This document shows positions 2,368-25,370 of a DNA stretch of 64,000 nt, in pieces. The notes beneath the pieces were generated by a model, which worked only from the letters and a program-made list of their open reading frames with translations, searched no databases and was not told where the DNA came from. Position 1 is the stretch's first letter. Each line of letters opens with the position of its first letter. A program made the translations under genes and the position numbers. Location of the stretch: positions 608,001 through 672,000 of the forward strand of contig JAVJNR010000004.1 in the NCBI GenBank assembly GCA_040217195.1. Direction: 5' to 3'. The stretch is from Leptospiraceae bacterium (GTDB lineage: Bacteria > Spirochaetota > Leptospiria > Leptospirales > Leptonemataceae).

Positions 2368-2411
2368 TTGATCAGATGTTAATCAGATATTAATCCGATC
2401 TTAATCCGGCT
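2368..2411. repeat. Four imperfect 11-bp tandem repeats (TTAATC(A/C)GAT-like) ending in the thiolase stop codon
   Basis: ttgatcagatg / ttaatcagata / ttaatccgatc / ttaatccggct. Confidence 0.7.
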
Positions 2412-3678
2412 TACCTATTACGAAGGTCATGTTGGTTGTAGCACTGCCGCCAATATTCAGCATCACACCATTTTTGGCACCTTCCACCTGGTATTCGCCG
2501 GCTTCACCAGTTACCTGCTTATTAATGTCCAGGGCCATTCGTACTCCAGAAGCGCCCACCGGATGACCGGCACCGATGAGTCCACCAGATGGATTGATTG
2601 GCTTGCCGCCTTTAAAATCAATCTTACCGTCTTCAATGGCCTGATATTCCTCTCCAGGACCGCTTATGCCAAAGGCAGAGATAGCTGCATATTCGCTGGA
2701 AGTGAAACAATCATGAGTCTCGATTACATCGATTTTATCCACATCCAGTTTAGCTCTGTCGTAGGCCTCTTTTACGGCCCGGCGAGTCCAGGGCAGAAGA
2801 TAGGGATCATCCTTGGACTCTTCCATTTTCTTATCGAAAAGAATGGGAGCGACTCGATGGCCCCAGCCCTTGATAACTGCATAGTCGGAGATCTTCTTGC
2901 CCTTTCTGGAAGCAAATTCCTTCGCATACCCGGGATTGGCAATAACCATCAATGCAGCACCGTCGGTTACTTGAGAGCAGTCGGTAATGGCCAGAACGCC
3001 TCCAACCTCTGCGTTAAAATCTCCGCCCCGGGTCTTTGCATGCTCGCCGCTCATGTACCAGCTTCTTGTCTGAGCTTTAGGGTTTCGTTTTGCATTCGCA
3101 TAGTTGATCCGGGAAATCTCTCCCAGGTCATCCATAATGCGAGATTCGCCAACAGACTTGCCATATCGCTGAAGGATATTGTCCGCCAGCTTGCCGAACA
3201 ACTTGGGAAAAGGAAAAGAAATTCCTTTGGCCTCTTTTTCATAGTAAGCTGCCGTTCCCAGGAAGTCCCCGCCAATTGCGGAGCTCACGGTTTTCATAAC
3301 TTCGATTCCCACCACCACTGCAACATCGTAGTCGCCGGCTCGCAGTTTGGTGTTGGCCGCATCCAGAGCCACGGAGCCAGAAGCGCAGGCTGCTTCATAA
3401 CGAGCTCCAGGCACACCATAGAATGCAGGATTCACTTCAGTCAGGAAGGCGCCCAGGTGACCCTGGCTTGCATACTGTTCGGCGTCAAAGTTACCTACGA
3501 AAACGCCGATGCGGTTTTCCTGATTTAACTTCTTGATTTCATCGTAGTCCAGCCCTGCCTGAGCCAGGCCATCGTCTACTACCTCACGCATCATGGACAT
3601 GAAGGTTTTTCCTTCCTTGCTCCAGTTACGGGCAAAATCCGTCTGGGCTCCGCCCAGGATAACGGTTTGATCTGACAT
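2401..3678 (-). CDS. Acetyl-CoA acetyltransferase, SCP2-type thiolase
   Basis: Nucleophile EAACASG, ETHDCF (SCP2-type motif), INPSGG and [16 protein letters not shown] upstream. Confidence 0.92.
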
Positions 3679-8317: not shown

Positions 8318-9553
8318 TCATGCCCGGGCCTGCCTTTTTCTATAACTTCGCAGCAGCGCGAAACCCAGGATCAGCAAAGCTGCTACCAGCAATGCCAGCC
8401 CCGCCCCTTCGTAGAGTACATCCAATCCTGTAGCCCCCCTGAGGGGCTCGGTTATTACCGGAGAGAAAAACTGACCCAGGAAAATGGCCGCTCCCAGGGC
8501 ACCCACCACCCGGCCCCGAAATGCCTCCGGAGTCACGGCAACCACCCATAGATTTAGATTTGGCATTAGCATTCCAAAACCCAGGCCGCAAATAGCCAGG
8601 CCAATCCAGACCTGAATCAAAGTGGTGGCACTTCCAAAGATAACGTAACCGGTGCCCATAAAAACGCAGATTAGAACACAGATCATTAGATGAGAAAAAT
8701 GCTTTCGCACATGTCCAAAGTTAAGAGAACAAAGAGAGGACACGAATGTAGCCAGTGCAATGGAGGCACCGCTTATGAAACCGCTGGCCTGAAACTCTTG
8801 CTCAAGAAAAAATGGAAGCTGCACCGGAATTAAATAGAATACTACCATCCCTCCGAATGCGAAGAATAGCAAAAACGTAATTACTGGTAGATGCAGAGAT
8901 TCTGGATCCCCCGGTATTGCAGTTTCGTAGGACTTTCTCTCTGGCTCGAATACAGACATGGCTGCGATGGGGGCAAGTATCAGGGCAAAAGAGTATACCA
9001 GGAATGGTCCTCTCCAGCTCCATTCGGAAAGCGCTCCACCGGCCAGCAAAAATACGACACCTCCAAGCCCCATGAAGGCAGCCTGGTAGCCCAGGAATCG
9101 AGCGCGATGGGGTCCATAGAAGTAATCAGATATTAGTGCCGTTGCTGAGGTTATTACCCCGGCAACGCTCATTCCGAGGATGGCCCGGGACACCAGAATA
9201 GAAGCAAGTGAATCAAGAAAGAATCCGGCAGTTCCGCTAATGCCATAGAGCACTGTGGATAGCACCAGCAGGCGCTTTCTTCCAAATCGGTCTGCAATCC
9301 ATCCTGCAATCGGAGCCGTAAGAGCGATGAACAATGCAGGCAATGTCAAAAGCAGCTTCACCCAGAAAGCAACATCCGGAACATCAATGAAGTGTTTCTT
9401 CATGGCCGGAAGAGACGGAGACATGGTGGCTCCGGCCATAACCGTAAGAGAACTGGCAGCCAGCAGAGAAAATTGGAGCCATCGATTCAGTCGATTATCC
9501 GTTTGCTGTGGCGGAGACTCCTCCTTCGATTGGCTGGAAGTATTCAATGTCAT
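8318..9553 (-). CDS. MFS transporter
   Basis: About 12 hydrophobic segments and MFS motif A GWIADRFGRKRLL; overlaps the 3' end of the upstream gene by 59 bp. Confidence 0.92.
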   Translation of the reverse strand: MTLNTSSQSKEESPPQQTDNRLNRWLQFSLLAASSLTVMAGATMSPSLPAMKKHFIDVPDVAFWVKLLLTLPALFIALTAPIAGWIADRFGRKRLLVLSTVLYGISGTAGFFLDSLASILVSRAILGMSVAGVITSATALISDYFYGPHRARFLGYQAAFMGLGGVVFLLAGGALSEWSWRGPFLVYSFALILAPIAAMSVFEPERKSYETAIPGDPESLHLPVITFLLFFAFGGMVVFYLIPVQLPFFLEQEFQASGFISGASIALATFVSSLCSLNFGHVRKHFSHLMICVLICVFMGTGYVIFGSATTLIQVWIGLAICGLGFGMLMPNLNLWVVAVTPEAFRGRVVGALGAAIFLGQFFSPVITEPLRGATGLDVLYEGAGLALLVAALLILGFALLRSYRKRQARA

Positions 9554-11609
9554 ATAAAGTACCTGCTCGTTGCTCCCGGGGCTTCCAGACAGCCTCCACT
9601 CTCAGACCGGTGCGAATATCATCCACTTTCAATCCATCTACAAGATGATATAGATGTGTATTGGTTCCATCCAGCTTGATATAACCGTAGGTGTAAGGCG
9701 GCTTTCGCGGCTGTCCAGGATACTCCAGATGAACCGTGGTGAAGCTTTCCAGGACTCCGGTGCGGGGGACTTCAATATATTCCGTACATTCTACAAAGCA
9801 AATGCCGCAATAGATCTTGGGCGGAACCTGGATCTTCTTGCATTCCGGGCAACGTGTACCAAAGATTTTTTCCTCATTCTTGAGGCCAGTGTAAAACCTG
9901 GTGAGCGCCTTTCCATAGACCCAGCGATATTCAATATCCACTTTTCCAGGTATTCGATTGAGTAGCTTCTGATTCCGGAGATAGTCTTCAGCCATTCGTT
10001 TCTTCTGAATAGTAAGGTGGCTACTACGAGGAAAATTTGCTACATTGACGATCTTTCCTGGCACAGATTCCACCGGTAGCTGATTTCGCAGTCTGTTTTT
10101 CAATTCAGATACATCCATTGAGGTTGTTTCAACCATACGAACAAAGGCCAGGATCTCCTGGCCCATTTTTGCATCTGGAATACCAATCACCGCCACTTCC
10201 TGAATTTCCGGATAGGAAAGCATTGCCTGTTCAATTTCAGTTGCAAAAACGTCTATGTCATTTCTGCGAATTCGATCCCAGGATCTGCAATGAAAGAACA
10301 ACTGACCCTCTTTTAAATAACCCAGGTCTTCTGTGCGAAACCAGCGCTCCCGGTCTTCCGCGAAATCTTCGACTGCTGACTCATAGGAGGTTGGATTCGT
10401 TTCTACGTTCAAATTGCTTTCCAGATCAATGCTGCGAATCCAAATATCGCCGATCTGCCCGGCTTTCGCCTCCTGAAATGAGGGAGAATCGGGCGCTAGC
10501 ACAGAGTAGCTGGAAGGCTTTGTTCTGGAACTAACAGAGGAATCAGTTTGCAACGATCCTATGCGAATCTCCGTGCCTGGAAGCGCCTGGCCACAGGAAC
10601 TGGACTTTCCTGGAGATTTGACCAGAGAAACAATCCCTGCCAGTTCAGTCACATGGTAGCCCCGGTACAGCACCCAACCGTTTTCTTTGATTCTTGCATA
10701 GCTTTCTGGCGACGGACCATTACCTGAAATCACAACCTTATTCAAAGATTCCGGGTCTACTGAAAGTTCCCCTTCGAGCTGACTGGATGACTGCACATCC
10801 GTTGAACCACGATTCAGGTATGAGTTTAGTGATTTTGAGCAGGCGAATAGTACAGTAGATCTATTACTGTTGCCAGATATTCGCATAGATGCGCCTGCAT
10901 TCATTGCCGACAGAGCAAAAGAAACCACATTGTGAATACTGGAGAGTTCATCCCAGAGTAAGAGCTCATCCCGAGAGTCCAGTTCCAGAAATACGGCCAG
11001 ATCCCTGGCTCTTTTCCAGAGCCCGCAACCAAATCCAATAGGTTTTGGCTGGTTTTCTGTGCCTGCCGTAAATGCGATGATTGCCGGTAAACGATCACCG
11101 GGCATCCCCGGGGTTGCCTGCTTCTCACTACTGAAGGCAACGTGACTGTCAGAGGCGGATTGAGATTCTCCTGGACTATTTTCTTCGCTGTCTTTCCATG
11201 ATTGGTTTTCTGTTATCAGTCCGTCCAGGGACTGAATTACGGACCATACAGGCTCCAGATTGGAATCAAGGGATTTCGAATAACTCAAAAACCGGGCCGA
11301 ACATTTCTGCAGACTTCGCGCGATTTGCTCTCCATTCCAGCGATGGGACAGCAACACCGGGGTGGAATTGGCCATGGAAATGGCAAATAGATCCAGCAAG
11401 ATAGGTAGCTTCTCTGAGTGATAGATACCTGCCGCTGTGCCAGGCTTCAAACCCATTCCTTGAAGCTCCAGGGCCCTTTTTCGCACCAGATCCAGAAAAT
11501 CATTGTAGCTAATGCTACCGTCCTCTGTATTCAAGAAAGGTCTGGAGTTATGCGTCCTGGAAGAGAATTCCAGCATTTCAGATAGCGATACGGGCATTGT
11601 TTCGTTCAT
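9495..11609 (-). CDS. AMP-binding (acyl-CoA ligase-like, degenerate) domain fused to a C-terminal DUF35 Zn-ribbon/OB-fold domain
   Basis: Adenylate-forming fold motifs FTAGTENQPK, YHVTE, WFRTEDLGY and EVAVIGIPDAKMGQE. C-terminal CPEC...CGIC ribbon plus PYTYGYIKLDG...GLRVEAVW OB fold. Start placed at ATG 11609. Confidence 0.85.
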   Translation of the reverse strand: MNETMPVSLSEMLEFSSRTHNSRPFLNTEDGSISYNDFLDLVRKRALELQGMGLKPGTAAGIYHSEKLPILLDLFAISMANSTPVLLSHRWNGEQIARSLQKCSARFLSYSKSLDSNLEPVWSVIQSLDGLITENQSWKDSEENSPGESQSASDSHVAFSSEKQATPGMPGDRLPAIIAFTAGTENQPKPIGFGCGLWKRARDLAVFLELDSRDELLLWDELSSIHNVVSFALSAMNAGASMRISGNSNRSTVLFACSKSLNSYLNRGSTDVQSSSQLEGELSVDPESLNKVVISGNGPSPESYARIKENGWVLYRGYHVTELAGIVSLVKSPGKSSSCGQALPGTEIRIGSLQTDSSVSSRTKPSSYSVLAPDSPSFQEAKAGQIGDIWIRSIDLESNLNVETNPTSYESAVEDFAEDRERWFRTEDLGYLKEGQLFFHCRSWDRIRRNDIDVFATEIEQAMLSYPEIQEVAVIGIPDAKMGQEILAFVRMVETTSMDVSELKNRLRNQLPVESVPGKIVNVANFPRSSHLTIQKKRMAEDYLRNQKLLNRIPGKVDIEYRWVYGKALTRFYTGLKNEEKIFGTRCPECKKIQVPPKIYCGICFVECTEYIEVPRTGVLESFTTVHLEYPGQPRKPPYTYGYIKLDGTNTHLYHLVDGLKVDDIRTGLRVEAVWKPREQRAGTLYDIEYFQPIEGGVSATANG

Positions 11610-11654
11610 GGATTTTTTAGCTCCGATTCCTGGGCGATGGACTGAGCAATTCAA

Positions 11655-12188
11655 TCAGTCGGAAGTTCCTTCGGTCAATGGCTTCGATTCAGGCTTAAAA
11701 TACAGGATGTCTCGAATGCTGCCGGAACTGTGTTCGGCCCAGACAGTAAGTAATGCATCGCCAGGTTTTGTATTCTTCAGAGTTTCCAGAGAACCTACAA
11801 TTAAATGAATCAATTCCGTTTCTACACCCGGATAGAAAATGGCCGCAAGCATATACGGGGGCTGAACACCTTCGGGCAGATTATGCGGGCTGCGATGTAC
11901 AATGGTTCCGGCCTTCAACACAGGATTGTCCTGCACAGACATTAGCTCATCGCATCGTCCTCCAAAGGGTGAGCGAGACTGGGCCGGAAGAAATAGTTTT
12001 CCGGTACGTTTGCATCTTCCTGCCTTGAGCTCTCCCTCTCTCAGTGAAGTCAAAAATGCGCCGATGACAGAGCCCGGATTCCATTGATAGTCCAGTTGCA
12101 CACTACCCTGCATGACCATGGGCTGTATCGTTTCCCATTCGTTTTCCCTGGTGCCAGACAAGGGAGGTTTCCCATCGTTTTGACTCAT
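11655..12188 (-). CDS. DUF35 / OB-fold protein (ChsH2/Rv3521-like)
   Basis: FLTSLREGELKAGRC...PYMLAAI...VWAEHSSGSIRDILYF pattern; 4-bp overlap with the upstream thiolase-like gene. Confidence 0.8.
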   Translation of the reverse strand: MSQNDGKPPLSGTRENEWETIQPMVMQGSVQLDYQWNPGSVIGAFLTSLREGELKAGRCKRTGKLFLPAQSRSPFGGRCDELMSVQDNPVLKAGTIVHRSPHNLPEGVQPPYMLAAIFYPGVETELIHLIVGSLETLKNTKPGDALLTVWAEHSSGSIRDILYFKPESKPLTEGTSD

Positions 12189-13384
12189 TGTGCCTTTCCT
12201 GAGGTAGATTCACGGATCTCCATATCCCGGTCTGAACTGAGAATCATCACTGTGTGGAATTGGATAGCTCCGCCCCATCCCTGGGCCAGACCGATCTTCG
12301 CCCCGGGTACCTGTCTATCGCCGGCTCGGCCCATTACCTGAAGAGCTACTTCTGCCTGCCTGATGATTGCGCTGGCTCCGATTGAATTGTTGGACAATAC
12401 TCCTCCAGATGGATTCACCGGTAGTTTCCCATCCATGGCCGTGGTTCCGTTTTCAATAAGTTTATAGGATTCCCCTGGTTCGCATAGACCCAGAGCATCA
12501 TACCAGAATAGATGCTGGCTGGAAAAAGCATCATACAGCTCCATAACGTCCAGTTGTTCCAGCGGATCCGTAATACCCACAGCACGATAGCAACGCTGGG
12601 CGGCTTCTCGCAAAGCCACAGGATCGCCCCAGTCCCGGTCTGGATAATTGACCCCGTCCGATATCGTGGCTGCGGCCTGAATCCAGGCCAGAGGTTGATC
12701 CAGTTTCTCGGCTACCTTTTCGCCCACCAGAACCATGGCACAGGCTGCATCGGAAGTGGGACAGGCATCCAGCAAACGCAATGGGGTGGATAACCAGTTC
12801 ATGGATTTCATTAGCTCTTCAGATATCTGCGGTAGCTTCAGTTGTGCATTGGGATTCTTCAGAGCATTCTTTCGCATCATGGTGCCAATCTTTGCGAAGT
12901 GGTTCTCATTTACTTCCGGATAATGACTCATATAAATTCTGGTCTGGTTGGCTACCGCCGATGGAGCCCCCCCGGCGAAATCCCGGCCCATGGTGGGCGA
13001 ATAAACCAGAGACAGGCCCTGCTGAACCGAGGATTCGCTCAATTTATCGCCAGAGACAACAAGAACTATGTCAAACATACCCGAAGCCACAAGATTGTAG
13101 CCGGCAATGGTGGTGGCTGCGCCCACTGTTCCCCCGGTTTGAATTCGAAAGTGACTGTTTAAAACACCCACAGAGTAATCTGCCGCCCAGTGTTCCGGTT
13201 CGCCTACCCCCTCGAAGAATTCCGGACCGCTTCCCATGACGGTGCAATCGATCCGATCTTCGCCTATGCCGGCATCATCCAGTGCCAGATCGCAGGCTTC
13301 GCCGATCAATTCCGGGAAATTTACATCCCTTCGCTTGAGCTTTGTCCTTGTCTGTCCAATTCCTGCTATGGCTACCTTTTGCAT
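12185..13384 (-). CDS. Thiolase-fold protein, Ltp3-like (probable acyl-CoA aldolase subunit)
   Basis: GIGQT...PEFFEGV..PE, QTGGTVG (no nucleophilic Cys), CPTSDAA, ELYDAF, VNPSGGVLSNNSIGAS; resembles actinobacterial Ltp3 as I recall it. Confidence 0.85.
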   Translation of the reverse strand: MQKVAIAGIGQTRTKLKRRDVNFPELIGEACDLALDDAGIGEDRIDCTVMGSGPEFFEGVGEPEHWAADYSVGVLNSHFRIQTGGTVGAATTIAGYNLVASGMFDIVLVVSGDKLSESSVQQGLSLVYSPTMGRDFAGGAPSAVANQTRIYMSHYPEVNENHFAKIGTMMRKNALKNPNAQLKLPQISEELMKSMNWLSTPLRLLDACPTSDAACAMVLVGEKVAEKLDQPLAWIQAAATISDGVNYPDRDWGDPVALREAAQRCYRAVGITDPLEQLDVMELYDAFSSQHLFWYDALGLCEPGESYKLIENGTTAMDGKLPVNPSGGVLSNNSIGASAIIRQAEVALQVMGRAGDRQVPGAKIGLAQGWGGAIQFHTVMILSSDRDMEIRESTSGKAQ

Positions 13385-13421
13385 ATCATGTCCACCTATC
13401 TGTTCTTTTCTGCGCCTTCAC

Positions 13422-14549
13422 CTAACGTTCCAGGAAGAAAACTATGTTGGATTGCATGGCAAGACCGGCCTGAGCATGAACCAGTGCGCGGTCCGCTTTC
13501 TTCAGCTGAACCGGTCCGGCTTTTCCCTGGATCTGCAAATGGGCCTCCAGCATTCGCATTAATCCGGTGGCATAGGGAACATGGGAGCAAATAGTTCCCC
13601 CGGACGGATTGACCTGGATCTGATTCGCATCTGAGCGAAGCCACCTGGGCCCGGATAAACTTCCAGTGAGTTGCAAGGCCTCGTACAACATCAATTCTTG
13701 ATGAGCATAGATTTCCTGAACCTCTGCAAAATCCACGTCCGTCGATTTCATTCCTGCTTGAGCAGAGGCCTTTTCCAGCGCCACTCTTGCAGAGGCCACT
13801 GCCCCCAGATTACGAAAGGTGGGATAATATGCATCGCTGGCAAATCCCACGCCTTGAACGAAGGACGCTGCCAGTGAGTTTTCCTTTATGTATTGCTCGG
13901 ATGCCAGAAAAAGCACCACGCATCCGTCTCCGGCTCGGGCGATGCTCAATTCTCTAAGAGGATCTGCCACGGGCTGCGAATCTATTATGTCCCGGGCAAC
14001 TAGATCCATGCCCTGTCCTTGCATGCATCGTGGGTTCAGACTTCCTTTTCTTCGATTCCGGGCCGCGATCTCTGCGAAGTCCATTTCGTTGGCGCCGCTG
14101 GCTTGCATATAGAATTGGGCCTGGAGAGCTGCAATGGAATCCCCATCGGCACCTACAGGCCTTAGATAGAACGGGTCTGCACTCATGGCGCTAAAGGCAG
14201 AATAGCCCACCTGGCTGGCCTTGGAATAGGCAACTACCATCGCGGTTTGAAATTTGCCGGTAAGAATCTTCGCCATGGCATACATGGCTCCCCAGGCACC
14301 GTCCCGTTCCACCTTGGACTCGTCTTTCAGAAAGGAACCGGCCGCCTCCACCTGGTAAACGTGATTTATGGATATACCATCCAGGACGTCATCGGCGCAC
14401 TGAACTACTGTATCAATGTCAGATCTCTGGAGGCCGGCCTCTTTCATGGCCTGGCGCACCGTCAAAAAGACAGTCTCCTCCACCGACAATTCCAGGTTCT
14501 CAGGCTCAATGATTGAAGCCCCACCGATGATCCCCACTCGATTTTGCAT
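13422..14549 (-). CDS. Thiolase-fold protein, Ltp4-like
   Basis: DVLDG, ESKVERDGAW, KILTG, DPFYLRP, IAALQA and VNPSGG; no nucleophilic Cys. Start placed at ATG 14549 (MQNRVGIIG). Confidence 0.82.
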   Translation of the reverse strand: MQNRVGIIGGASIIEPENLELSVEETVFLTVRQAMKEAGLQRSDIDTVVQCADDVLDGISINHVYQVEAAGSFLKDESKVERDGAWGAMYAMAKILTGKFQTAMVVAYSKASQVGYSAFSAMSADPFYLRPVGADGDSIAALQAQFYMQASGANEMDFAEIAARNRRKGSLNPRCMQGQGMDLVARDIIDSQPVADPLRELSIARAGDGCVVLFLASEQYIKENSLAASFVQGVGFASDAYYPTFRNLGAVASARVALEKASAQAGMKSTDVDFAEVQEIYAHQELMLYEALQLTGSLSGPRWLRSDANQIQVNPSGGTICSHVPYATGLMRMLEAHLQIQGKAGPVQLKKADRALVHAQAGLAMQSNIVFFLER

Positions 14550-14567
14550 AGCCTGTCCGAAGGCAGT

Positions 14568-14593
14568 ATTGATTGACAAATCAGTCAATCAAT
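14568..14593. promoter_or_regulatory. Perfect palindrome (candidate repressor operator) overlapping the likely promoter of the ltp4-ltp3-DUF35 operon
   Basis: ATTGATTGAC-aaatca-GTCAATCAAT, 10-bp perfect arms, 18 bp upstream of ATG 14549; contains TTGATT/TTGACT -35-like hexamers on the minus strand. Confidence 0.75.
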
Positions 14594-14650: not shown

Positions 14651-14682
14651 AAAGAAAAAGGCCGGACCAATACGGTCCGACC
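14651..14682 (-). terminator. Rho-independent terminator after the LURP-one-like gene
   Basis: Minus strand GGTCGGACC-gtatt-GGTCCGGCC followed by TTTTTCTTT. Confidence 0.75.
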
Positions 14683-14693
14683 ATCCACAGGGT

Positions 14694-15266
14694 TTACTGC
14701 TGTCGGCCTTCGATGACCTGTAGCAATACAGCCGAAGCAAGGCCCAGACGTCTGTCCAGAGAGGTGCCCGGATGAAAGGTAATTGTGATTTGAGGCACAA
14801 ATGGATTGAATGCCTGTTTGAAGTTTGCGGCTTCCTGACCATTGGCGGTTACAGTGAAAGCCTGAGGCACAAGATTGGAAAGTAGCCGGCGCACCAGAGC
14901 CAGTGCCATACTATCCTCCTGAATCGTGCCGATTTCATTCTCAGCTGAATCCAGAATAATCCATGAATCCCGCAGAATGGATTTCAATCCCTTGCGACGT
15001 AGAGTACCGATTCGTTCACCGGTTTTTGCATCATCCACATCGTAGGATGCTCCAAAGTCGATAATACTTCGGGCATTAATTTTTAGAAGCTCCTCATTGC
15101 GAGACTCGTCAGCGTAGACGGTAATAGCTTCCTTGAGCTTAAAGGCTTTTTGTTTCACGAACAAAAGCAGATTCTGGCGATTTCCATCATAGATTCGGAT
15201 TTCATTTCCGAACAATTTCCAGAATTTCATTCTGCAGTAATACTGGTCGAGAGAGTAGCGATCCAT
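14694..15266 (-). CDS. LURP-one / scramblase (Tubby C-terminal-like) family protein
   Basis: FVKQKAFKLKEAITVY...ARSIIDFGASYDVDD...IGTLRRKGLKSILRDSW pattern. Confidence 0.75.
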   Translation of the reverse strand: MDRYSLDQYYCRMKFWKLFGNEIRIYDGNRQNLLLFVKQKAFKLKEAITVYADESRNEELLKINARSIIDFGASYDVDDAKTGERIGTLRRKGLKSILRDSWIILDSAENEIGTIQEDSMALALVRRLLSNLVPQAFTVTANGQEAANFKQAFNPFVPQITITFHPGTSLDRRLGLASAVLLQVIEGRQQ

Positions 15267-15530: not shown

Positions 15531-16325
15531 ATGAATCCAATGTCCTTCGATCCTCATAATCTAGCTCTGGCACTAATTGTATCTATGGCATTACAGGCCG
15601 TTTTCTTTGCTTTCGCGGCTGCTCTTAAGACAGACAAAGTTACAGACCTTTCCTATAGCCTGACATTTTTGATCCTGGCTCTGGGCCTGCTCGCAATCAA
15701 CCATTCTGCAAGCAAGGCCCATTACTTTCTGGCCTTTATGGTTGCACTCTGGTCTGTTCGGCTAGGGGGTTACCTGCTGGTTCGCATCATTCGCATGGGT
15801 CGGGATCAGAGGTTCGATGGGATACGAGAAAGCTTTGTTGCTTTCCTGCTTTTCTGGGTATTTCAGGGCATTACGGTCTGGGTCACCATGCTTCCTGTGA
15901 TTTATGCATTGAGCCAACCGGAACTGCCTGCGGGAACTGCATTTATGTCTGGCGCAGGTTTATGGCTTCTGGGTCTTGCCTACGAGTCCATTGCAGATCA
16001 GCAGAAGTTTTCCTTTAAGAATGATCCGGCAAATGAGAATCGCTGGATAGATACCGGCCTGTGGAAGTATTCCAGACATCCAAATTATTTTGGCGAGATA
16101 CTGCTCTGGTGGGGCCTTTTTGTGGCAGTGCTACCCACCCTTTCCGGATGGGCCTATCTGCTAATAGCTGGACCTATCTTCATAACTTGCATTCTTCTGT
16201 TCTTCAGTGGAATACCACCTCTAGAAAGACGATACGCCAGAAAGTACGGAAACAATTCGCAATTCCAGAGATACAAAAAGGGAACGAGCCTGCTGATACC
16301 CTGGAAGCCTGCTCGCATCGGCTGA
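15531..16325 (+). CDS. DUF1295 family membrane protein (steroid 5-alpha-reductase/ICMT-like superfamily)
   Basis: KTDKVTDLSY, WSVRLG, DQRFD, ESIADQQKF, GLWKYSRHPNYFGE, SGIPPLE. Confidence 0.92.
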   Translation: MNPMSFDPHNLALALIVSMALQAVFFAFAAALKTDKVTDLSYSLTFLILALGLLAINHSASKAHYFLAFMVALWSVRLGGYLLVRIIRMGRDQRFDGIRESFVAFLLFWVFQGITVWVTMLPVIYALSQPELPAGTAFMSGAGLWLLGLAYESIADQQKFSFKNDPANENRWIDTGLWKYSRHPNYFGEILLWWGLFVAVLPTLSGWAYLLIAGPIFITCILLFFSGIPPLERRYARKYGNNSQFQRYKKGTSLLIPWKPARIG

Positions 16326-16421: not shown

Positions 16422-18800
16422 TCAGTCAGCTACAAATAGTAGGGTCCCATTGGTAAATTCCCCTGGTTCCAATTCTCGCAGCTGAATGTACCGACTGTTC
16501 TGAGAACGAACAAATTGAAATCCGGATGCATTTTGAATCAGACTGCCGGCTGGAGCATTCAGGACAAACTTCCTGGTCCGATCTCCATTCAATGTGGCCT
16601 GCACTCCATTGCCAGTTTCCTGTAGACGAAGCTTGTACTCTATGAGTTTTTCACCGCGCCAATCCACGGCTGAATACGTTTTGTGTTTCAACCAGGGACT
16701 TTCATCATCAAGACCAAACCATCGCTCTTTTTTGGGCTCTGGATTTAGAAAAGCCACCACAGGTTCGGATGCAGGCGAAACAGAGGGTCCTGACTTTGCA
16801 ACAATTCGAATACTATAAGCGCCGGGTTCATCCAGTAGAAAATCCTGGGATAGTAGCGCTGCACCGGACGTTATAGTCTTCTTCGTTTGATATTCCTTTC
16901 CTGGCAATTGCGCTATTAGAATTTCATAGGATGTGGCATCGCTCTGGGCTTTCCATTTCAAGTTAACCTTTCCTTGATCGGAAGCATGAGCGCCCAGAAT
17001 TTCCGGAGCCTTCAGTTCCTTTATGGATCTCTCTGCTGTAAGAGAAACCGATGTTCGGCCATAAACCAGAGGACTGGTGGGCCCACTGCCAGCCTCATTG
17101 ATGGCAACAATTCGATAGCCATACCATTGACCGGGCCTCAAGGAGTTGGTGTCTTGAAACGCTGCATCTTTTGTGCGAAAAGGGCCTTCCCATTTCTGGC
17201 TGGATGGATCATAACGGTAGATCAAGTATTCCTGAACTCCGGGAGATTCATCCCATTGAAGTTTTATCTTTCCCTGGAGGCTTCCGCGACTAACCTGAAC
17301 ACCGGTTACCATGGCCGGCGGCAAATTCTCATCTGCAGCTGTAAGTACGAGAGGACGACTCCACATTCCTTTTATATTTGTATCTACTTTACGAATACGA
17401 TATGTATACCGGGCCCCTGGAGATACCCGATAGTCTTTAAATTCTTGCTCCCGGCTTGTGCCCAGCGATTGCCAGGTGGCCGACGTTTCATTCCATCTTT
17501 GAATCTCAAAGGCTGCCGCAGAAGACTGCCAGCTCAAATGGGCATAGATCTGGGTGCCTTTTTGAATCATCTTACCGCCCAGGATTTCGATTCGAGTAGA
17601 CGGATCCGGATTTCTGGAGGCAAACCCCTGGACCACCGGCGCATTCTCCTGGGGAGTGCGGCCCTTTTCATCCATACTCAAAACTCGATAGGCATAGGGA
17701 CGGCCCGGATCTACACTTGCATCCCGGAACAGAGTACTTGTTGAATACCCCACAGTCTGAAACTTCAGCGAATCATCATGGGGGGCCCGCTGAATCTCAT
17801 AGGCCAGGGCAGACGGTACAGGGCTCCAGGAAATTTCCACATGCCGAGCAGACTCTCCACGGGAGGCAAGAATCTGCTCCGGCGCCGGCAGATTTCCAGG
17901 AACATCGCCCGAATCTGGCGGAGCGCTATCCTCAATGATAAGTGCTGTGCGAATCAGCTGACTCATGGCATCGTAAGATATCCAGCCATAGCCGTCGGCG
18001 CCCCATTGCCGGCTCCAGGAATTCATTATCTTGAAGGCACCATTTTCGCGATCATCATCGTAGCCCACGATGACTACAGAATGACCGCCCATAAAGGCAC
18101 CATCCGGGCCTGCATATACTCCATCCTTCAGATCCAGAAGGTTTTCATAGAGAAGGATACCCACCATCACTGGATGGCCGGCTGCGATCTGGCGTTTGAT
18201 TCCATCCGGTGCATGGCTGGATAGAACTCTGTATCCTTCAATTCGAAACTTACCTGCAATTGGATGCAGCCGGGCAGACGGTCGGATGCCTGTCTGGCCC
18301 GGTTCGTAAGGCATTTCGCTCCAGGGAACCGCCCCTTTTCGCAGAAGTACGTCCAGAGCCTCCGGAAACGTGGCCCCTTTTGCACCGGATTGAAGCAGAG
18401 CTTCGCTATAGGCCGGTGAAAATACATGATGGCCGGGCCCCCCGCTAAAAGGACTGTCAAAGCCCCAGCCTCGGTGCAGATTTTCGTAGTACGATTTTAC
18501 TGCATAAACAGCAGCCCAGGAAATACAACTGGCCTGGTCTCCCTGATAGCCCACGGGCGGCATCTGCGAAGAAAGATCAATTTCTGAAGGTAGAGGTGCA
18601 GGCTGCATCTGTCCCGGTAGATCCGCACCCGGTATTGCAGAAAGCTGCTTCCAACCAGCCTGGCGATAACCGCAGTTCTTACATGGATCTGCGACCAGAG
18701 ATCCAAAGGATGGAAGGATCAGTAAGAAAGTCAGCCCGGCGGATTGCCAGGCTTTCCCGCTCCATAGGCGGTTTTCTCTTTCAGTTGCATGGTATTTCAT
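16422..18800 (-). CDS. Secreted C1 (papain-like) cysteine peptidase with fibronectin type III repeats
   Basis: QGDQASCISWA (Gln/Cys), GGHSVVIVGY (His), NSWSRQWG (Asn); FN3 repeats (ISWSPV, LQWDESPG, LKWKAQ). Confidence 0.9.
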   Translation of the reverse strand: MKYHATERENRLWSGKAWQSAGLTFLLILPSFGSLVADPCKNCGYRQAGWKQLSAIPGADLPGQMQPAPLPSEIDLSSQMPPVGYQGDQASCISWAAVYAVKSYYENLHRGWGFDSPFSGGPGHHVFSPAYSEALLQSGAKGATFPEALDVLLRKGAVPWSEMPYEPGQTGIRPSARLHPIAGKFRIEGYRVLSSHAPDGIKRQIAAGHPVMVGILLYENLLDLKDGVYAGPDGAFMGGHSVVIVGYDDDRENGAFKIMNSWSRQWGADGYGWISYDAMSQLIRTALIIEDSAPPDSGDVPGNLPAPEQILASRGESARHVEISWSPVPSALAYEIQRAPHDDSLKFQTVGYSTSTLFRDASVDPGRPYAYRVLSMDEKGRTPQENAPVVQGFASRNPDPSTRIEILGGKMIQKGTQIYAHLSWQSSAAAFEIQRWNETSATWQSLGTSREQEFKDYRVSPGARYTYRIRKVDTNIKGMWSRPLVLTAADENLPPAMVTGVQVSRGSLQGKIKLQWDESPGVQEYLIYRYDPSSQKWEGPFRTKDAAFQDTNSLRPGQWYGYRIVAINEAGSGPTSPLVYGRTSVSLTAERSIKELKAPEILGAHASDQGKVNLKWKAQSDATSYEILIAQLPGKEYQTKKTITSGAALLSQDFLLDEPGAYSIRIVAKSGPSVSPASEPVVAFLNPEPKKERWFGLDDESPWLKHKTYSAVDWRGEKLIEYKLRLQETGNGVQATLNGDRTRKFVLNAPAGSLIQNASGFQFVRSQNSRYIQLRELEPGEFTNGTLLFVAD

Positions 18801-18806
18801 AGATTA

Positions 18807-21344
18807 TCAGTCGGATCGTGCGATACTAATGCTGCGACCGGATAGTCCTGGTACAGACTCATCGCTTTCTATAAGTAGAAAATCTTCCGAGTCAGCCAGC
18901 ACTCGCAATTTGCCGGCCTCCAGCACATCACTTTTTGCTGCATATAGGCCAGAATAGTTGCTGGAACGACCATCTACGGACAGAGTGATTGTGAAGCGAT
19001 CCTGCTCGGATTGAATCTTGACCTCAACCGCACGCATCTTTCCATCAAAAAATTCCCCTTTCCAGGTCCCTGTAAATCGTTCCAGGCCTGTGCCTGGAAG
19101 AAATCGATGCCTTTTCTGCACAGGTTCGGGGTTGCGAAAGGCGGTCACTGGCCTGGAGTTTTCTGATTCAGACCCCAGCTGAGCTTTGGTTCGAATCACA
19201 TAGAAGAACAGATCCCCGGCTTCTCCAGGTATCTTCTCGGAATAGCCAGTTTTATTTCCAGGAACCGCTGCCACAAATTCATAGTCGGCGCTGGAAACCA
19301 TTGAAGCCAGGCCTCGGCCACGGGTCTGCGCCCTGAAAACATAGTACTCGGCGGCTCCTTCGACAGCATCCCACTGGATGCTCACATTCTCACCTTTCAG
19401 ATTAGATTTAACATTCTCTGGTGGAGGCAGAACCAGCCCGGCTCTTTTTGCATTTGGATTGGCCCTGCCCAGAGCAGGATGGCTATACCCACTGTTTCCG
19501 GCCTGATTCGCTGCGACTACAACGTAAGCAAACCATCGACCGGATCGGACGCTGGAGTCACGATCAATAAAAGTGGTACCGGTAACCTTTTGAGGACCCT
19601 CCCAGACCTTGCGGCCGTAGTCGTACCTAAAAATGGCATAGGCGGTAGCACCAGGTACACCGTTCCATTCCACTTCAATACGATCATTGTATATACCTTT
19701 GGAGGCCTCTATAGAACCGGGCTTTTCTGGCTTTGTAGTTCTACCCGGCAGATTCACCTGCACTGGTTCGGACCAATCTCCTGCACCCTTGCTATTGATA
19801 GCTCGCACAGCATAGGCCGTTACCTGATTGTTTCCAGGGTTGGCATCGTTGTAAGATGGACTGGTGGACGTACCCAACACCGCCCAGGAATCGTTGGAGG
19901 CATTGTACCTTGCAATTTGATAACGACTGGCTCCGGACACAGCATTCCAGTTCAACGATACACTTACGCCGGCCACTGCGCGAAGGCTAGCACGAAGACC
20001 ACTTACCTGTTGCGGAGTCGTTGTTCCGCCCTGCTGAGCGTATCCTTCAACAATAGTTGATCTTTCCGGGTCTGAATAGTTTTCTTCCGAGGCAACGGCT
20101 ACAACAAGATATTTATAGGCGACGTTGGCCTGAACCGTGCGATCTGCATGTACTGTAGATTCTGCATAGGCAATCTGTTCGAATCCAGTCCCTCCTGGAT
20201 CGGCGCGAAATACGATGTATACTACGGCTCCGGACACAGCAGACCAACTAATTTCCACACGATCGCTGTAAGTACCCCGGCTGGCTGTTACATTCGATGG
20301 CGGCTCAATCTTTTCAGATTCTTCAGGACCGGGGTTGGGTCCAGGTGTAGGTCCCGGACCGGGCTCGGATTCCTGAATATCATACATTACCAGAATATAG
20401 GGATTTAGCTTTCTCCACATAGAATAGGAGATCCAACCGTAACCACTGGTTCCCCAGGAAGTGCCCCAGGAGTTGATCAGTTTAAATGCTCCTACATCAC
20501 CGTTGGGAGAACGTTTGCTATCATCGTAGCCTACAAGGGTCATTGCATGTCCGCCGTAGTTCTGACCGGCTTTTCGATCATAGACCTGTCCGGACCGCAG
20601 ATTGTAAAATGCATCGTCTACAGGAATTCCAAATACCACTGGATTTCCGCTTGCAAGTTCAGCCTTTACGGCGTCCAGATTATTCGCTGGAATTCGCTTG
20701 AAGGACCGGGCTTTGAAACTTCCTGCCTGCTGGCGAGCGCCCGAGTTGGGTTGTCTGCGGAAATCATTTGGATTGTAAGGCATGGCCGCCCAGGGAGCAA
20801 TTCCCTGCTGTACAGCCAGCTGCATGGCATCATCCAGAACGGAACCATCGTCGCGACCACCGTTGATTTGATTATATACGTAAGCAGGTGAAAAAACTCG
20901 CTGGCCGGAGCCCCCGCTCATGGGTGAGTCATATTGCCAGTTTCTTTCAATTCGTTCCTGGTAACTTTTAGCTGCATAAGCTACGGCCCATGCTACACAA
21001 CTTCCCTGTTGCCCCTGATTTCCCACCGGAGGCATTCGAGAACTAAGATCCACGCTGGAAGGAAGACCGCGATGCCGGATCTGGGTGGTTGGAGCCAGCT
21101 CCACAGATCGCATGGCTGCAGGAGACGTCGGGTTGAATCCGCAATCCATTTCTTTCCCATCGCAACCTCGTGGGCGCACAGAGGAGGGATCAAAATCGCC
21201 TTCAGCCGGTAATCCTGTTCCCAGAAGTACCAGTGTAATGATCGCTATCCAGAAAGACCAGTTTCTGTAGGTGCCTGAAGGCTTACTGCTGAACCAGCCT
21301 GAAGTATTCCTGGTTTTTCGCAAAGACTTATCCTGCTTTTTCAT
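18807..21344 (-). CDS. Secreted C1 (papain-like) cysteine peptidase with fibronectin type III repeats
   Basis: QGQQGSCVAWA, GGHAMTLVGY, NSWGTSWG; PG-rich linker; four FN3-like repeats. Start placed at ATG 21344. Confidence 0.92.
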   Translation of the reverse strand: MKKQDKSLRKTRNTSGWFSSKPSGTYRNWSFWIAIITLVLLGTGLPAEGDFDPSSVRPRGCDGKEMDCGFNPTSPAAMRSVELAPTTQIRHRGLPSSVDLSSRMPPVGNQGQQGSCVAWAVAYAAKSYQERIERNWQYDSPMSGGSGQRVFSPAYVYNQINGGRDDGSVLDDAMQLAVQQGIAPWAAMPYNPNDFRRQPNSGARQQAGSFKARSFKRIPANNLDAVKAELASGNPVVFGIPVDDAFYNLRSGQVYDRKAGQNYGGHAMTLVGYDDSKRSPNGDVGAFKLINSWGTSWGTSGYGWISYSMWRKLNPYILVMYDIQESEPGPGPTPGPNPGPEESEKIEPPSNVTASRGTYSDRVEISWSAVSGAVVYIVFRADPGGTGFEQIAYAESTVHADRTVQANVAYKYLVVAVASEENYSDPERSTIVEGYAQQGGTTTPQQVSGLRASLRAVAGVSVSLNWNAVSGASRYQIARYNASNDSWAVLGTSTSPSYNDANPGNNQVTAYAVRAINSKGAGDWSEPVQVNLPGRTTKPEKPGSIEASKGIYNDRIEVEWNGVPGATAYAIFRYDYGRKVWEGPQKVTGTTFIDRDSSVRSGRWFAYVVVAANQAGNSGYSHPALGRANPNAKRAGLVLPPPENVKSNLKGENVSIQWDAVEGAAEYYVFRAQTRGRGLASMVSSADYEFVAAVPGNKTGYSEKIPGEAGDLFFYVIRTKAQLGSESENSRPVTAFRNPEPVQKRHRFLPGTGLERFTGTWKGEFFDGKMRAVEVKIQSEQDRFTITLSVDGRSSNYSGLYAAKSDVLEAGKLRVLADSEDFLLIESDESVPGLSGRSISIARSD

Positions 21345-21427
21345 TTTGCGCTCCCCAATTCCAGCACGGAATCCTTTGGTTATGAGACGACAGTAATAGG
21401 GGGGAGGTTTCCCATTGCGCAACCGTT

Positions 21428-23105: not shown

Positions 23106-25370
23106 ATGGTTTTAGAAGTATTAAGTGTTCTTGCAGACAATCTATCTCTGGTACTGGCGGGCATGTTAGCTCTGGCCGGCATTGTGCTAACCATATATCT
23201 GAAATTACCGCAGCTAAGATACCCATTTTTGAGCCTGAAATTGATTCTGGGAACGCTGGATTGGTCCGGCTCCCGGGGAAAAATTACACCCGGTCGATCG
23301 TTTGCAACAAGCTCATTGAGCGCCATGGTACCCGGTGCATTTCTGGGAACTCTGCTCGCTGTGTTAATTGCAGGGCCAGGAATTTTATTCTGGATTTGGA
23401 TTGTATCTTTCTTCTTATCGCCTATCCATTTTGTTCTTTCTACGGCTGCACATCGAAGCCGAAAACGCACAGCTTCAGGATCCATGGTAGGTTCCAGCTC
23501 TGAGGCAGTCGCTCAAATCACACGGGCCCGATGGCTATCCATTCTTGCGGCAACCTTCTTTATTCCAGCCGCATTGATTGGCGGGGCAGCCCTGCCTGTT
23601 GCTTTTCTATCAGGAGGCCTGTCTGGAACCTTTGGCCTCAGCGGAAGCGATACCAGCTTGCTGCCGGGCCCTACAGCAGTGGCCATAGCGCTGGCATTGG
23701 GACTGGTGGCATTGTCTGCAGGTGGAATCAAGCGAATCGGCTTTTTTGCCAAGTTCGCCTTCTACGGAGGTCTTGCGCTCATCCTGCTGTCTCTTATTCT
23801 GGGCCCTTTTCCGGATGTATCAGGAATTCTGGACGATGTAGTGGCTGCTTTCCAGGATTCATTCTCCATGCAGGCCCTGCCCTCTATGTTACTGGCCATG
23901 ACCGTCTATTTTGCATTCACAGAGGTTGGTTCCGGAAAGGCAGCTTCCATTTCTGCAGCGATTCGCACCGATTACCCGGCCAAGGCCGGTCTTTCCATGC
24001 AGCTAACCTTGCTTCTGGAATCCGGCATATCTGCAGTGGTACTACTTCTTCTGGGTAGCATCTCCGGGGCCGGCCAGCTCTATGAGTGGTATCTTACTTC
24101 TGGAGGACCATCCCGATCCCTGGTACAAATCTTCGATCCTTCCCTGTATGACCTATTCCGAGCTTTCTTTTTCAGGGCACCGGATTCCAACGTTTCTGGA
24201 ATCCTAATGTTTGGAGCCTGCCTACTATTGATTGTTCCAGGTATGACCGGATGGTGGTATTCTCTATATAATAATGCTTATTCCATGGGTGGCCGGGCCG
24301 CTTCGGTGGCGGCCAGTTTGCTCTTTTTTGCAGTCATAGTAGGTACAGGCCTGGCCCTTCAATTCCTGGGCAACGAAGTATTCACAGGATTGCTGCTATT
24401 GACTGTGGTTGTGATGATGGTAGCCAGCCTTTCAGGTACGATTGCATCTTTGCTTTTGATGCGTTCCAGTCGAAACGAGCTGGGATTTTTTCTGGAGTCC
24501 AGAGAAGCGAAAGCTGCCATTGCCGGAGATTTCTTTCTGATTCTAATTTCCGTACTACCTCAGAACCTGATCAGCAAGATGTTCGGATGGTTCAGCCTCA
24601 TACCTTTTCCGGGCCCCATTCGACGTCCACTGATTAGAACCTTCGCACGAATCTACAAGATCAATCTGGAGGAAGCAGAAAAGCCGCCGGAAGAGTACCC
24701 TTCTTTGAATGCATTCTTCATTCGCCGTCTGAAAGAAGGCCTGCGCCCCATAGACTCGGATCCACGAAGTATTGTAAGCCCGGTGGATGCGCGGGCTTCT
24801 CGTTTCGGTAATATCACGGAAGGATTGCTCATCCAGACCAAAGGTATTGTTTACACTCTTAAGGACTTACTGGGAAGTCAGGAGATGGCCGAGCCATACC
24901 TGGATGGAAAGTATGTCGTGCTTTATTTGAGCCCACAGGACTACCATCGAATGCATACTCCCATTGAATGCAAGGTGGAAGGTTTCAACTACGCCCCTGG
25001 TAAATTGTTTCCCGTGAACGATATTGCTGTAGAAGGATTGCACGGACTGTTTCCCAAGAATGAAAGGCTTACCTCATTTCTGCTTTCTCCCAGAGGGCGA
25101 ATCGCAATGATCAAGGTAGGGGCCACAAATGTAGGCAAGATTCGAGTTACCTACGATTCCATTCGCACCAACAAATTCTTTCGCAGGAAGAGAGATATTA
25201 AATATACTCCTCCTGTAGAGATGGCTAAAGGGGCAGAGATTGGTCGATTTGAGATGGGATCCACCGTCATTCTTTTATTCGAAAAGGATACAATGGAATT
25301 CGCCGAGCATATGTATGAGGGAATCAGGGTTCAGCTGGGTCAGCCTATTGCTTACTTCCTGCGTAAGTAG
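23106..25370 (+). CDS. psd: Fusion: alanine/glycine:cation symporter (AGCS/AlsT-like) N-terminal domain + phosphatidylserine decarboxylase
   Basis: N-terminal about 480 aa multi-TM with GPGILFWIW, GGIKRIG and TEVGSGKA...AAIRTDYPAKAG (AGCS-like). C-terminal YPSLNAFFIRRLK, SPVD, YLSPQDYHRMH, KNER, VGATNVG and FEMGSTV (self-cleavage/pyruvoyl motif). Confidence 0.9.
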   Translation: MVLEVLSVLADNLSLVLAGMLALAGIVLTIYLKLPQLRYPFLSLKLILGTLDWSGSRGKITPGRSFATSSLSAMVPGAFLGTLLAVLIAGPGILFWIWIVSFFLSPIHFVLSTAAHRSRKRTASGSMVGSSSEAVAQITRARWLSILAATFFIPAALIGGAALPVAFLSGGLSGTFGLSGSDTSLLPGPTAVAIALALGLVALSAGGIKRIGFFAKFAFYGGLALILLSLILGPFPDVSGILDDVVAAFQDSFSMQALPSMLLAMTVYFAFTEVGSGKAASISAAIRTDYPAKAGLSMQLTLLLESGISAVVLLLLGSISGAGQLYEWYLTSGGPSRSLVQIFDPSLYDLFRAFFFRAPDSNVSGILMFGACLLLIVPGMTGWWYSLYNNAYSMGGRAASVAASLLFFAVIVGTGLALQFLGNEVFTGLLLLTVVVMMVASLSGTIASLLLMRSSRNELGFFLESREAKAAIAGDFFLILISVLPQNLISKMFGWFSLIPFPGPIRRPLIRTFARIYKINLEEAEKPPEEYPSLNAFFIRRLKEGLRPIDSDPRSIVSPVDARASRFGNITEGLLIQTKGIVYTLKDLLGSQEMAEPYLDGKYVVLYLSPQDYHRMHTPIECKVEGFNYAPGKLFPVNDIAVEGLHGLFPKNERLTSFLLSPRGRIAMIKVGATNVGKIRVTYDSIRTNKFFRRKRDIKYTPPVEMAKGAEIGRFEMGSTVILLFEKDTMEFAEHMYEGIRVQLGQPIAYFLRK

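Follow-up and report, generated by a model that had tools for sequence, protein, structure and literature searches.

We analysed a window of 64,000 nucleotides from a Leptospiraceae bacterium (G000:C1:608001-672000; the source genome, G000, is 4.6 Mb in size and 93.7% complete) and focused on an operon of five linked minus-strand genes that encode two thiolase-fold proteins, two DUF35 proteins and a transporter. Metagenome genomes that carry the labels Leptonemataceae, Leptospiraceae or Spirochaetaceae are the nearest named relatives of G000, so the spirochaete label of the genome holds. The first gene (14549-13422) encodes protein A, an Ltp4-like thiolase-fold protein of 375 amino acids (aa) that lacks both the nucleophile Cys and the conserved catalytic Tyr and is likely a non-catalytic partner. 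It is followed by the gene for B (13384-12185), an Ltp3-like thiolase-fold protein of 399 aa with G85, Y284 (in YDAF) and N333, likely the catalytic retro-aldolase subunit, and by that for X (12188-11655), a free DUF35 protein of 177 aa with a degenerate zinc ribbon. The fourth gene (11609-9495) encodes ligase-Y, a fusion protein of 704 aa, in which residues 1-548 (9966..11609) form an acyl-CoA ligase-like domain with degenerate P-loop, A5, A7, A8 and A10 motifs, a predicted pseudoenzyme, and the remainder (9495..9965) forms a strongly conserved type-Y DUF35 domain whose CxxC...CxxC ribbon is intact. The last gene (9553-8318) overlaps that of the fusion and encodes a predicted major facilitator superfamily (MFS) transporter of 411 aa. 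A and B are separated by 37 bp and X and ligase-Y by 45 bp, while B and X overlap by 4 bp and ligase-Y and MFS by 59 bp. Pfam searches returned thiolase-like domains in A and B, MFS_1 in the transporter, and AMP-binding, AMP-binding_C, zf-ChsH2 and OB_ChsH2_C in ligase-Y; in X, the sole match was to zf-ChsH2, below the cut-off. The MFS gene follows the fusion in the five genomes with a degenerate ligase described below and has matches above 50% identity at no other locus; the G001 contig stops before the position where MFS would lie.

An earlier reading of this DNA, made from the letters alone (hereafter the sequence-only reading), had described these five genes with a terminator and a palindrome upstream, and our open reading frames (ORFs) and hairpin and palindrome scans recovered all of them, as well as every motif that it quoted. 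The palindrome (14569..14592) holds an 18-bp operator, TGAYTGA-N4-TCARTCA (14570-14587), 20 bp upstream of the first ATG, and is expected 0.01 times per shuffled window. The ATG of A is preceded by GGACAGG; the longer frame of the sequence-only reading would begin within the palindrome. The terminator-like hairpin (14660..14682, minus strand; 10 pairs, 7 of them GC, with a T-run) matches the consensus, ends the upstream 190-aa gene and separates it from the operon, although hairpins of this kind are no rarity (12 found against an expectation of 7.1). The genes have ribosome-binding-like sequences, and no sigma-70 consensus promoter was found in a search upstream of the operon. The product of the upstream gene (window 14694-15266, minus strand) has no Pfam match; throughout the genus it keeps its position and an identity of 86-91%.

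To place A and B, we used an alignment of thiolase-fold proteins from the fetched loci (116 rows) and a quick IQ-TREE tree. A-type and B-type proteins formed two sister clades (98 rows; Shimodaira-Hasegawa-like approximate likelihood ratio test, SH-aLRT, 96), apart from the Nocardia Ltp2 orthologue and the Cys-thiolases. Within them, A shared a 27-row clade with Ltp4 (SH-aLRT 99), and B joined Ltp3 in one of 26 rows (90) that is nested in a 45-row clade at 97, bearing out the Ltp4/Ltp3 kinship that had been proposed; the contrary outcome, clustering with ordinary thiolases and possession of a catalytic Cys, was not observed. The nearest non-spirochaete relatives of the pair belong to Hydrogenedentota, Syntrophomonadaceae, Thermodesulfobacteriota, Acidobacteriota and Planctomycetota. 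The description of the operon as an actinobacterial module therefore does not hold, its nearest relatives being in the first four of these groups, and direct transfer from actinobacteria was rejected because the tree shows nearer relatives in other phyla. The best NCBIfam family of B was PRK08313 (Ltp3), at 368 bits against a cut-off of 514, and those of A were PRK06066 (archaeal; 201 bits, cut-off 516) and PRK07937 (Ltp4; 182 bits, cut-off 419). The Tsukamurella, Streptomyces and Nocardia controls exceeded the Ltp3/Ltp4 cut-offs, with actinobacterial scores of 713-750 for PRK08313.

In the same alignment, G85 of B and G84 of A occupy the column that is Cys in 13 of the 18 outgroup rows, including the thiolase encoded at 2401-3678 of the window, so that both proteins lack the nucleophilic Cys, as had been claimed. 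B has YDAF (284-287) in place of HDCF and NNSIG in place of GHP, again in agreement with the sequence-only reading; the nucleophile Cys, the HDCF Cys and the GHP His are absent from both A and B and present in the 2401-3678 thiolase. Across the B clade (50 rows), the nucleophile column is Gly in 50/50, the Tyr284 column is Tyr in 50/50 and Asn333, in the GHP His column, is kept in 49/50. None of the A rows (n=48) has Cys at the nucleophile column, and their Tyr column is variable. The 2401-3678 gene (minus strand) itself encodes an intact Cys thiolase that scores above the PRK06289 cut-off and has no operator; its orthologues are 94-95% identical and lie close downstream in G002 and G005.

An AlphaFold2 model of B (predicted local distance difference test score, pLDDT, 89) matched SCP2-type thiolases, the archaeal thiolase, BbsB, PhlC, Ltp2 and Sal at template modelling (TM) scores of 0.79-0.91, the best matches being SCP2-type and archaeal thiolases (0.83-0.91), with Sal at 0.83 and Ltp2 at 0.79. 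These matches confirm the thiolase fold of B and not its reaction. In the steroid retro-aldolases Sal and Ltp2, a Tyr at the HDCF position is the catalytic base, the acid is Cys304 (Sal) or Tyr344 (Ltp2), and Gly at the Cys position rules out thiolysis (PMC12329534). B has both signatures of these enzymes, Gly for the nucleophile Cys and Tyr at the first HDCF position. Because the tree places A and B with Ltp4 and Ltp3 and Tyr284 of B is invariant, the pair is likely a retro-aldolase.

We then surveyed DUF35 genes at the 40 loci found with B. Two separate DUF35 genes stand beside A/B at 14 of the 40 (L035, L042, L044-L049, L051-L055 and L057), from many phyla, and X with a ligase-Y fusion at 15, all labelled Spirochaetota; among the surveyed loci, a double-DUF35 single gene occurs in actinobacteria only. 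The split of the two DUF35 halves, presented as a new architecture in the sequence-only reading, is thus common outside actinobacteria. The single gene with two DUF35 domains that goes with the Ltp3/Ltp4 sterol systems was not found here, there being two genes, one of them ligase-fused. In a quick DUF35 tree with few columns and many open forks, X grouped with the N-half of the actinobacterial double-DUF35 (27 rows, SH-aLRT 99), upholding the view that the free DUF35 is first-half-like. The partners of Y in this tree (94) were the second free DUF35s from other phyla, and its kinship with the C-half was left unsettled there, but BLAST scored Y best against the C-halves, so the claim that the fused domain is second-half-like stands on the BLAST side and not on the tree side. 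Taken together, the assignment of X and Y to the two halves appears reasonable. PRK08313-like genes (E <= 1e-70) were present in 48 of 401 Spirochaetota genomes sampled. In other spirochaetes, DUF35 is fused to a beta-keto-acid cleavage enzyme (BKACE) or to SCP2 domains. A second A/B pair, with DUF35s fused to other domains, was seen in other Spirochaetota families (L136:14209-16829, L137, L138 and L145), where the fusions are SCP2-SCP2-DUF35 (~395 aa) and DUF35-BKACE (474 aa) and the pair adjoins a CoA-transferase, a ligase and a further A/B/X/Y set. According to the available text of the SSO2064 paper, DUF35 occurs fused to thiolase, Rossmann, SCP2 and hot-dog domains, and CoA ligase is not among the partners named (PMC2954200). 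No paper on a ligase-DUF35 fusion was found in a literature search whose scope left out subscription papers and supplements.

The CoA-ligase-DUF35 fusion is family-wide and intact elsewhere. Active ANL enzymes carry a P-loop (TSGTTGxPKG), GYGxxE, TGD, GRxK and the catalytic Lys of GKI, for which the G000 protein has FTAGTENQPKP, RGYHVTE, TED, CRSWD and PRSSHLTI; motif scoring gave one false 'A8' match for G000, where the alignment shows CRSWD. All five scored motifs are present in 36 of 53 fusion proteins; nine retain three or four (three of these nine are shorter than 600 aa) and eight retain two or fewer, including the G000 protein and a 99% identical copy. The motifs that mark an active acyl-CoA synthetase are intact in 7/7 comparison genomes outside the genus and not in G000. 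Hence the sequence-only reading was right about the fusion and missed the loss of the ligase catalytic motifs; judged by these motifs, the ligase domain in G000 appears catalytically dead. Because synonymous sites are saturated (pS about 0.6-0.8), identity by domain was used in place of dN/dS. Over five degenerate genomes (10 pairs), B averaged 88% identity, Y 79%, the ligase C-part 45% and its N-part 26%; over seven more distant intact genomes (21 pairs), the corresponding means were 74, 66, 74 and 66%. The five degenerate genomes, G000 among them, group in a single clade (100/99) whose sister, G001, has an intact ligase N-part; the motifs were therefore lost one time only, and as five assemblies share the decay, it is not a sequencing artefact. 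The ligase frame is open in all five, fusion lengths are 631-775 aa, and the N-domain gathers indels and diverges nearly to background.

In this clade, the dead ligase domain would probably be kept because the DUF35 tail is essential, and another ligase would activate the substrate. A tentative alternative, which we hold to be rather doubtful, is that the domain was retained because it took on a new function without catalysis (binding of acyl-CoA or CoA, or spacing or stabilisation of the complex). This would fit the frame that stays open in five genomes despite saturated synonymous sites, the better-kept C-terminal subdomain (45% against 26%) and the fact that the domain is deletable, as G015 shows, but translation of the DUF35 tail needs an open frame in any case, and the N-domain has diverged near background with indels. 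The ligase at G000:C5:449353-450900 was considered as a replacement activating ligase and set aside; it has no operator. An eroding module was seen in G015 (L140:8558-12524), where A lies on a very long branch with broken motifs and only B and Y are well kept; neither X nor the ligase turned up within the 20 kb fetched, and the operator persists.

The 18-bp core of the palindrome also precedes a tetR gene and two acyl-CoA dehydrogenase (ACAD) genes, tetR-ACAD1-ACAD2, on another contig (G000:C3:76541). The pattern TGAnTGA-N4-TCAnTCA has four perfect matches in G000, all in front of genes: the A-B-X-ligaseY-MFS operon, tetR-ACAD1-ACAD2, a putative metallo-beta-lactamase-fold gene with a short-chain dehydrogenase/reductase (SDR), and a second tetR. 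Twelve further sites have one mismatch, one of them before a dienoyl-CoA-reductase-like SDR. Sites number 3-6 per genome in 7/7 genomes of the genus, compared with 0 for the reversed pattern, and 10 of 20 stretches chosen for having an operator site lead into tetR-ACAD1. The module of G016 lies in three pieces, each with its own site, and the operator is absent before the module in G040, G014 and several others. The geometry is the same as that of the Bacillus FadR box WTGAATGAMTANTCATTCAN (PMC5397183). Judged by its pattern and positions, the palindrome is a conserved FadR-box-like operator that would join the two operons in a single pathway and to which the TetR encoded at G000:C3:75903-76559 likely binds. 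At G000:C1:102363-104389, the operator heads the pair of the putative metallo-beta-lactamase-fold protein (no Pfam match) and the SDR, a pair that is kept with the site in G001, G002 and G004. DUF1295 (steroid 5-alpha-reductase-like) membrane proteins are encoded near the operon (window 15531-16325, plus strand) and downstream of the second operator-bearing tetR (G000:C5:48710-49732).

In other genomes the partner genes are linked directly. G040 has A-B-X-ligaseY-MaoC-ACAD-ACAD-SDR in a single run, G014 likewise has MaoC and both ACADs directly after ligase-Y, and L035 has operator-tetR-ACAD-ACAD-A-B-X-Y in a single run; the G000 orthologues of the linked partners are 71% (MaoC), 77% (ACAD1) and 52% (ACAD2) identical. 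Orthologues of B and ACAD1 occur together in 17 of 41 genomes, with B alone in 1, ACAD1 alone in 2 and neither in 21, counts in which kin are not independent. Both ACADs have a Glu in helix G and none at the position of medium-chain acyl-CoA dehydrogenase (MCAD). Isovaleryl-CoA dehydrogenase (IVD) has a helix-G Glu as well. [quoted passage not shown] The core clusters of G040, G014, G417 and L035 hold no 3-hydroxyacyl-CoA dehydrogenase, with the qualification that G040 has the SDR and L132 a full beta-oxidation set. A ligase, a dehydrogenase, MaoC and a Cys-less aldolase, mostly without a dedicated 3-hydroxyacyl-CoA dehydrogenase, is what a C3-branched chain requires. The lineage-specific regulon or cluster members vary: G012 has a carboxyltransferase, G015 both a flavin monooxygenase and a GMC oxidase, and other clusters beta-keto-acid cleavage enzymes. 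They nonetheless fit ketone or 3-oxo-acid products, which are those of the published Ltp3-Ltp4 model on sitosterol (PMC6678751).

We therefore lean, by slightly better than an even chance, towards a model in which the operon encodes one heteromeric retro-aldolase, made of A, B and the two DUF35s, that acts on C3-branched 3-hydroxyacyl-CoAs from a non-steroid lipid; the genes, motifs, trees, operator, co-occurrence and ligase decay are what we observed, and the complex, the reaction, the substrate and the effector are what we infer. An acid would be activated to its CoA ester, the co-regulated ACAD pair (contig C3) would desaturate C2-C3 and the MaoC hydratase (C2) would add water. Since the resulting tertiary alcohol is not oxidisable, normal beta-oxidation would be blocked, and the retro-aldol step would bypass the block: Tyr284 of B would take the hydroxyl proton and the C2-C3 bond would break, giving acetyl- or propionyl-CoA and a ketone, or a 3-oxo acid where the branch was carboxylated first. 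In relatives, the activating ligase would be tethered to the aldolase via the DUF35 tail. The TetR repressor with its FadR-like box would switch on both operons upon acyl-CoA build-up. A review describes Ltp3-Ltp4 as a heteromeric aldol-lyase for C24 branches (PMC6678751).

Several observations weigh against this model. At the position of the His of Ltp2 and the catalytic Cys of Sal, B carries Ala286, and at that of Ltp2 Tyr344 it carries Asn333; from conservation, Cys208, His377 and Lys114 are candidates for the general acid. The MaoC gene, both carboxyltransferase genes and the flavin monooxygenase gene of G000 have no operator, and the sites before the 2,4-dienoyl-CoA-reductase-like SDR (one mismatch) and before a cholesterol-oxidase-like gene in G015 fit other substrates. 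The literature found holds no assay for any family member, and the genome is 93.7% complete.

The substrate favoured by the sequence-only reading, a C24-branched phytosterol side chain cleaved by the same aldolase with the rings left unopened, is unlikely in our view. The only genetically tested members, Ltp3 and Ltp4, do have a C24-branch role (PMC6678751, PMC6273163), LCAD-type dehydrogenases accept sterol chains (PMC10925408), the G012 operator precedes an ACAD and a carboxyltransferase, matching the C28-carboxylation model, SCP2-DUF35 fusions occur in other spirochaetes, and G000 encodes a cholesterol-oxidase-like GMC protein (646 bits, below the cut-off of 850), as does G015 behind an operator (599 bits). 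Against it, genes for sterol C26-oxidation and ring degradation, expected in the host of an Ltp3/Ltp4 sterol system, were not found in the 93.7% complete genome. KshA was not found in G000 nor in any of 41 genomes (0/41), but 0/14 control genomes passed the cut-off, so that sensitivity is not positively shown; the PF01144 CoA-transferase (IpdAB), positive in 6/14 controls, was not found in G000, and Nocardia HsaA and HsaC as tblastn queries gave no match there. KstD was also not found, the three full-length FAD_binding_2 proteins of G000 being NadB, SdhA and PRK12834, and CYP125/142 were not among the best PDB matches of its three P450s. FadD19 and the adjoining Nocardia ACAD pair matched in G000 at only 26-40%. 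Close homologues occur in Syntrophomonadaceae, which are fatty-acid oxidisers. The branched lipid that the sequence-only reading had offered as an alternative to phytosterol fits better. The available text of PMC13599519 and PMC13753135 yielded nothing on Ltp3/4.

Nor does the evidence point strongly to a bypass like that of Sal, in which an unbranched or unsaturated secondary 3-hydroxyacyl-CoA would be cleaved to an aldehyde and acetyl-CoA within a general fatty-acid regulon, a scenario that we regard as improbable. The operator shares the geometry of the Bacillus FadR box WTGAATGAMTANTCATTCAN (PMC5397183), the dienoyl-CoA-reductase-like SDR shares the site in G000, G002, G004 and G005, and intact fused ligases exceed the PRK06187 long-chain ligase cut-off; yet with 4-5 sites the regulon is a small one, the site is missing from the seven ~650-aa ligases, the Cys thiolase and the remaining ACADs of G000, and no aldehyde dehydrogenase is among the annotated neighbours. 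Least probable, and in our view very unlikely, is that the pair is not an aldolase at all but has another Cys-free thiolase-fold activity, such as a non-canonical thiolase acting via Cys208, a decarboxylase or an acyl transferase. Cys208 is kept in 26/26 core B rows, SCP2-type and archaeal thiolases (TM 0.83-0.91) match the fold ahead of Ltp2 (0.79) and Sal (0.83), and neither known general acid is present in B, but the Ltp2 orthologue, itself an aldolase, has this Cys too. The absence of the nucleophile Cys, the HDCF Cys and the GHP His, together with the lack of a 3-hydroxyacyl-CoA dehydrogenase in the four core clusters (the G040 SDR and L132 set apart), also speaks against such an activity.

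Compared with known systems, the module is real, conserved and of the Ltp3/Ltp4 kind, and is not the actinobacterial sterol system by the criteria tested. With the actinobacterial Ltp4-Ltp3 genes and their upstream double-DUF35 gene (Rv3522/Rv3523/Rv3521 type, seen in Tsukamurella L110, Streptomyces L111 and Nocardia L112), it shares orthologous A/B clades, the A-B order, the missing nucleophile Cys, the conserved Tyr (YVPF there, YDAF here) and two distinct DUF35 types, the first zinc-less. It differs in that identity is only 39-41% (B) and 28-30% (A), below the NCBIfam cut-offs, in that the DUF35s lie on two downstream genes, one CoA-ligase-fused, in its partners (MaoC and an IVD/LCAD-type ACAD pair here, EchA19 and FadD19 there), and in having a FadR-like operator and no sterol cluster. 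The archaeal thiolase/HMG-CoA synthase (6ESQ), BbsAB (7PXP) and PhlABC (5M3K) share the fold (TM 0.85-0.91) and a DUF35 partner. Those complexes catalyse thiolysis or acyl transfer by means of an active-site Cys; here, the nucleophile Cys is absent. The steroid retro-aldolases Ltp2-ChsH2 and Sal-Shy (PDB 6OK1, 9MYR; PMC12329534) resemble the module in their Cys-less thiolase fold, the Tyr at the HDCF position and a DUF35 partner fused to another pathway enzyme. They are built as homodimers, and their single DUF35 type is fused to a hydratase, whereas here there are two paralogous subunits, two DUF35 types and a ligase fusion, and the general acids Ltp2 Tyr344 and Sal Cys304 are absent. Finally, Bacillus FadR (YsiA), a TetR-family fatty acyl-CoA sensor (PMC5397183), is alike in its TGAnTGA-N4-TCAnTCA operator and in a TetR before acyl-CoA catabolic genes; the regulon here is small and specialised, and the likeness is one of operator geometry and TetR family.

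Elsewhere in the window, a 754-aa ORF (23106-25370, plus strand) joins a sodium:alanine-symporter-like membrane domain to phosphatidylserine decarboxylase, and the products of two tandem minus-strand genes (16422-18800 and 18807-21422) combine a C1 peptidase domain of the papain type with fibronectin III repeats.

In summary, G000 contributes two new features: the catalytic motifs of the ligase were lost in a single event while the reading frame stayed open, and an operator ties two operons into one pathway. We put forward as a speculative wider picture, which may well not hold in full, that the Ltp3/Ltp4 type would be a pan-prokaryotic debranching retro-aldolase with its own general acid, of which sterols would be the actinobacterial special case, that DUF35s would serve as plug-in tethers (for the ligase, the beta-keto-acid cleavage enzyme or SCP2), and that in the degenerate clade the ligase would have become an acyl-CoA-binding or scaffold subunit, a pseudoenzyme at its origin beside an intact sister lineage. 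Ltp3 and Ltp4 are known from gene knock-outs only, and the route of branch removal is contested. The set offered by this lineage is compact and sterol-free, comprising a ligase, two dehydrogenases, MaoC, the aldolase, a regulator and its operator, and lends itself to finding the reaction and its natural substrate, with the intact fused ligase and the TetR as direct substrate sensors. The paired intact and dead ligase fusions provide a clean natural case of an enzyme domain outliving its catalysis through its tie to a needed scaffold. If true, a C3-branched acyl-CoA retro-aldolase would explain how diverse bacteria pass the classical block in beta-oxidation.

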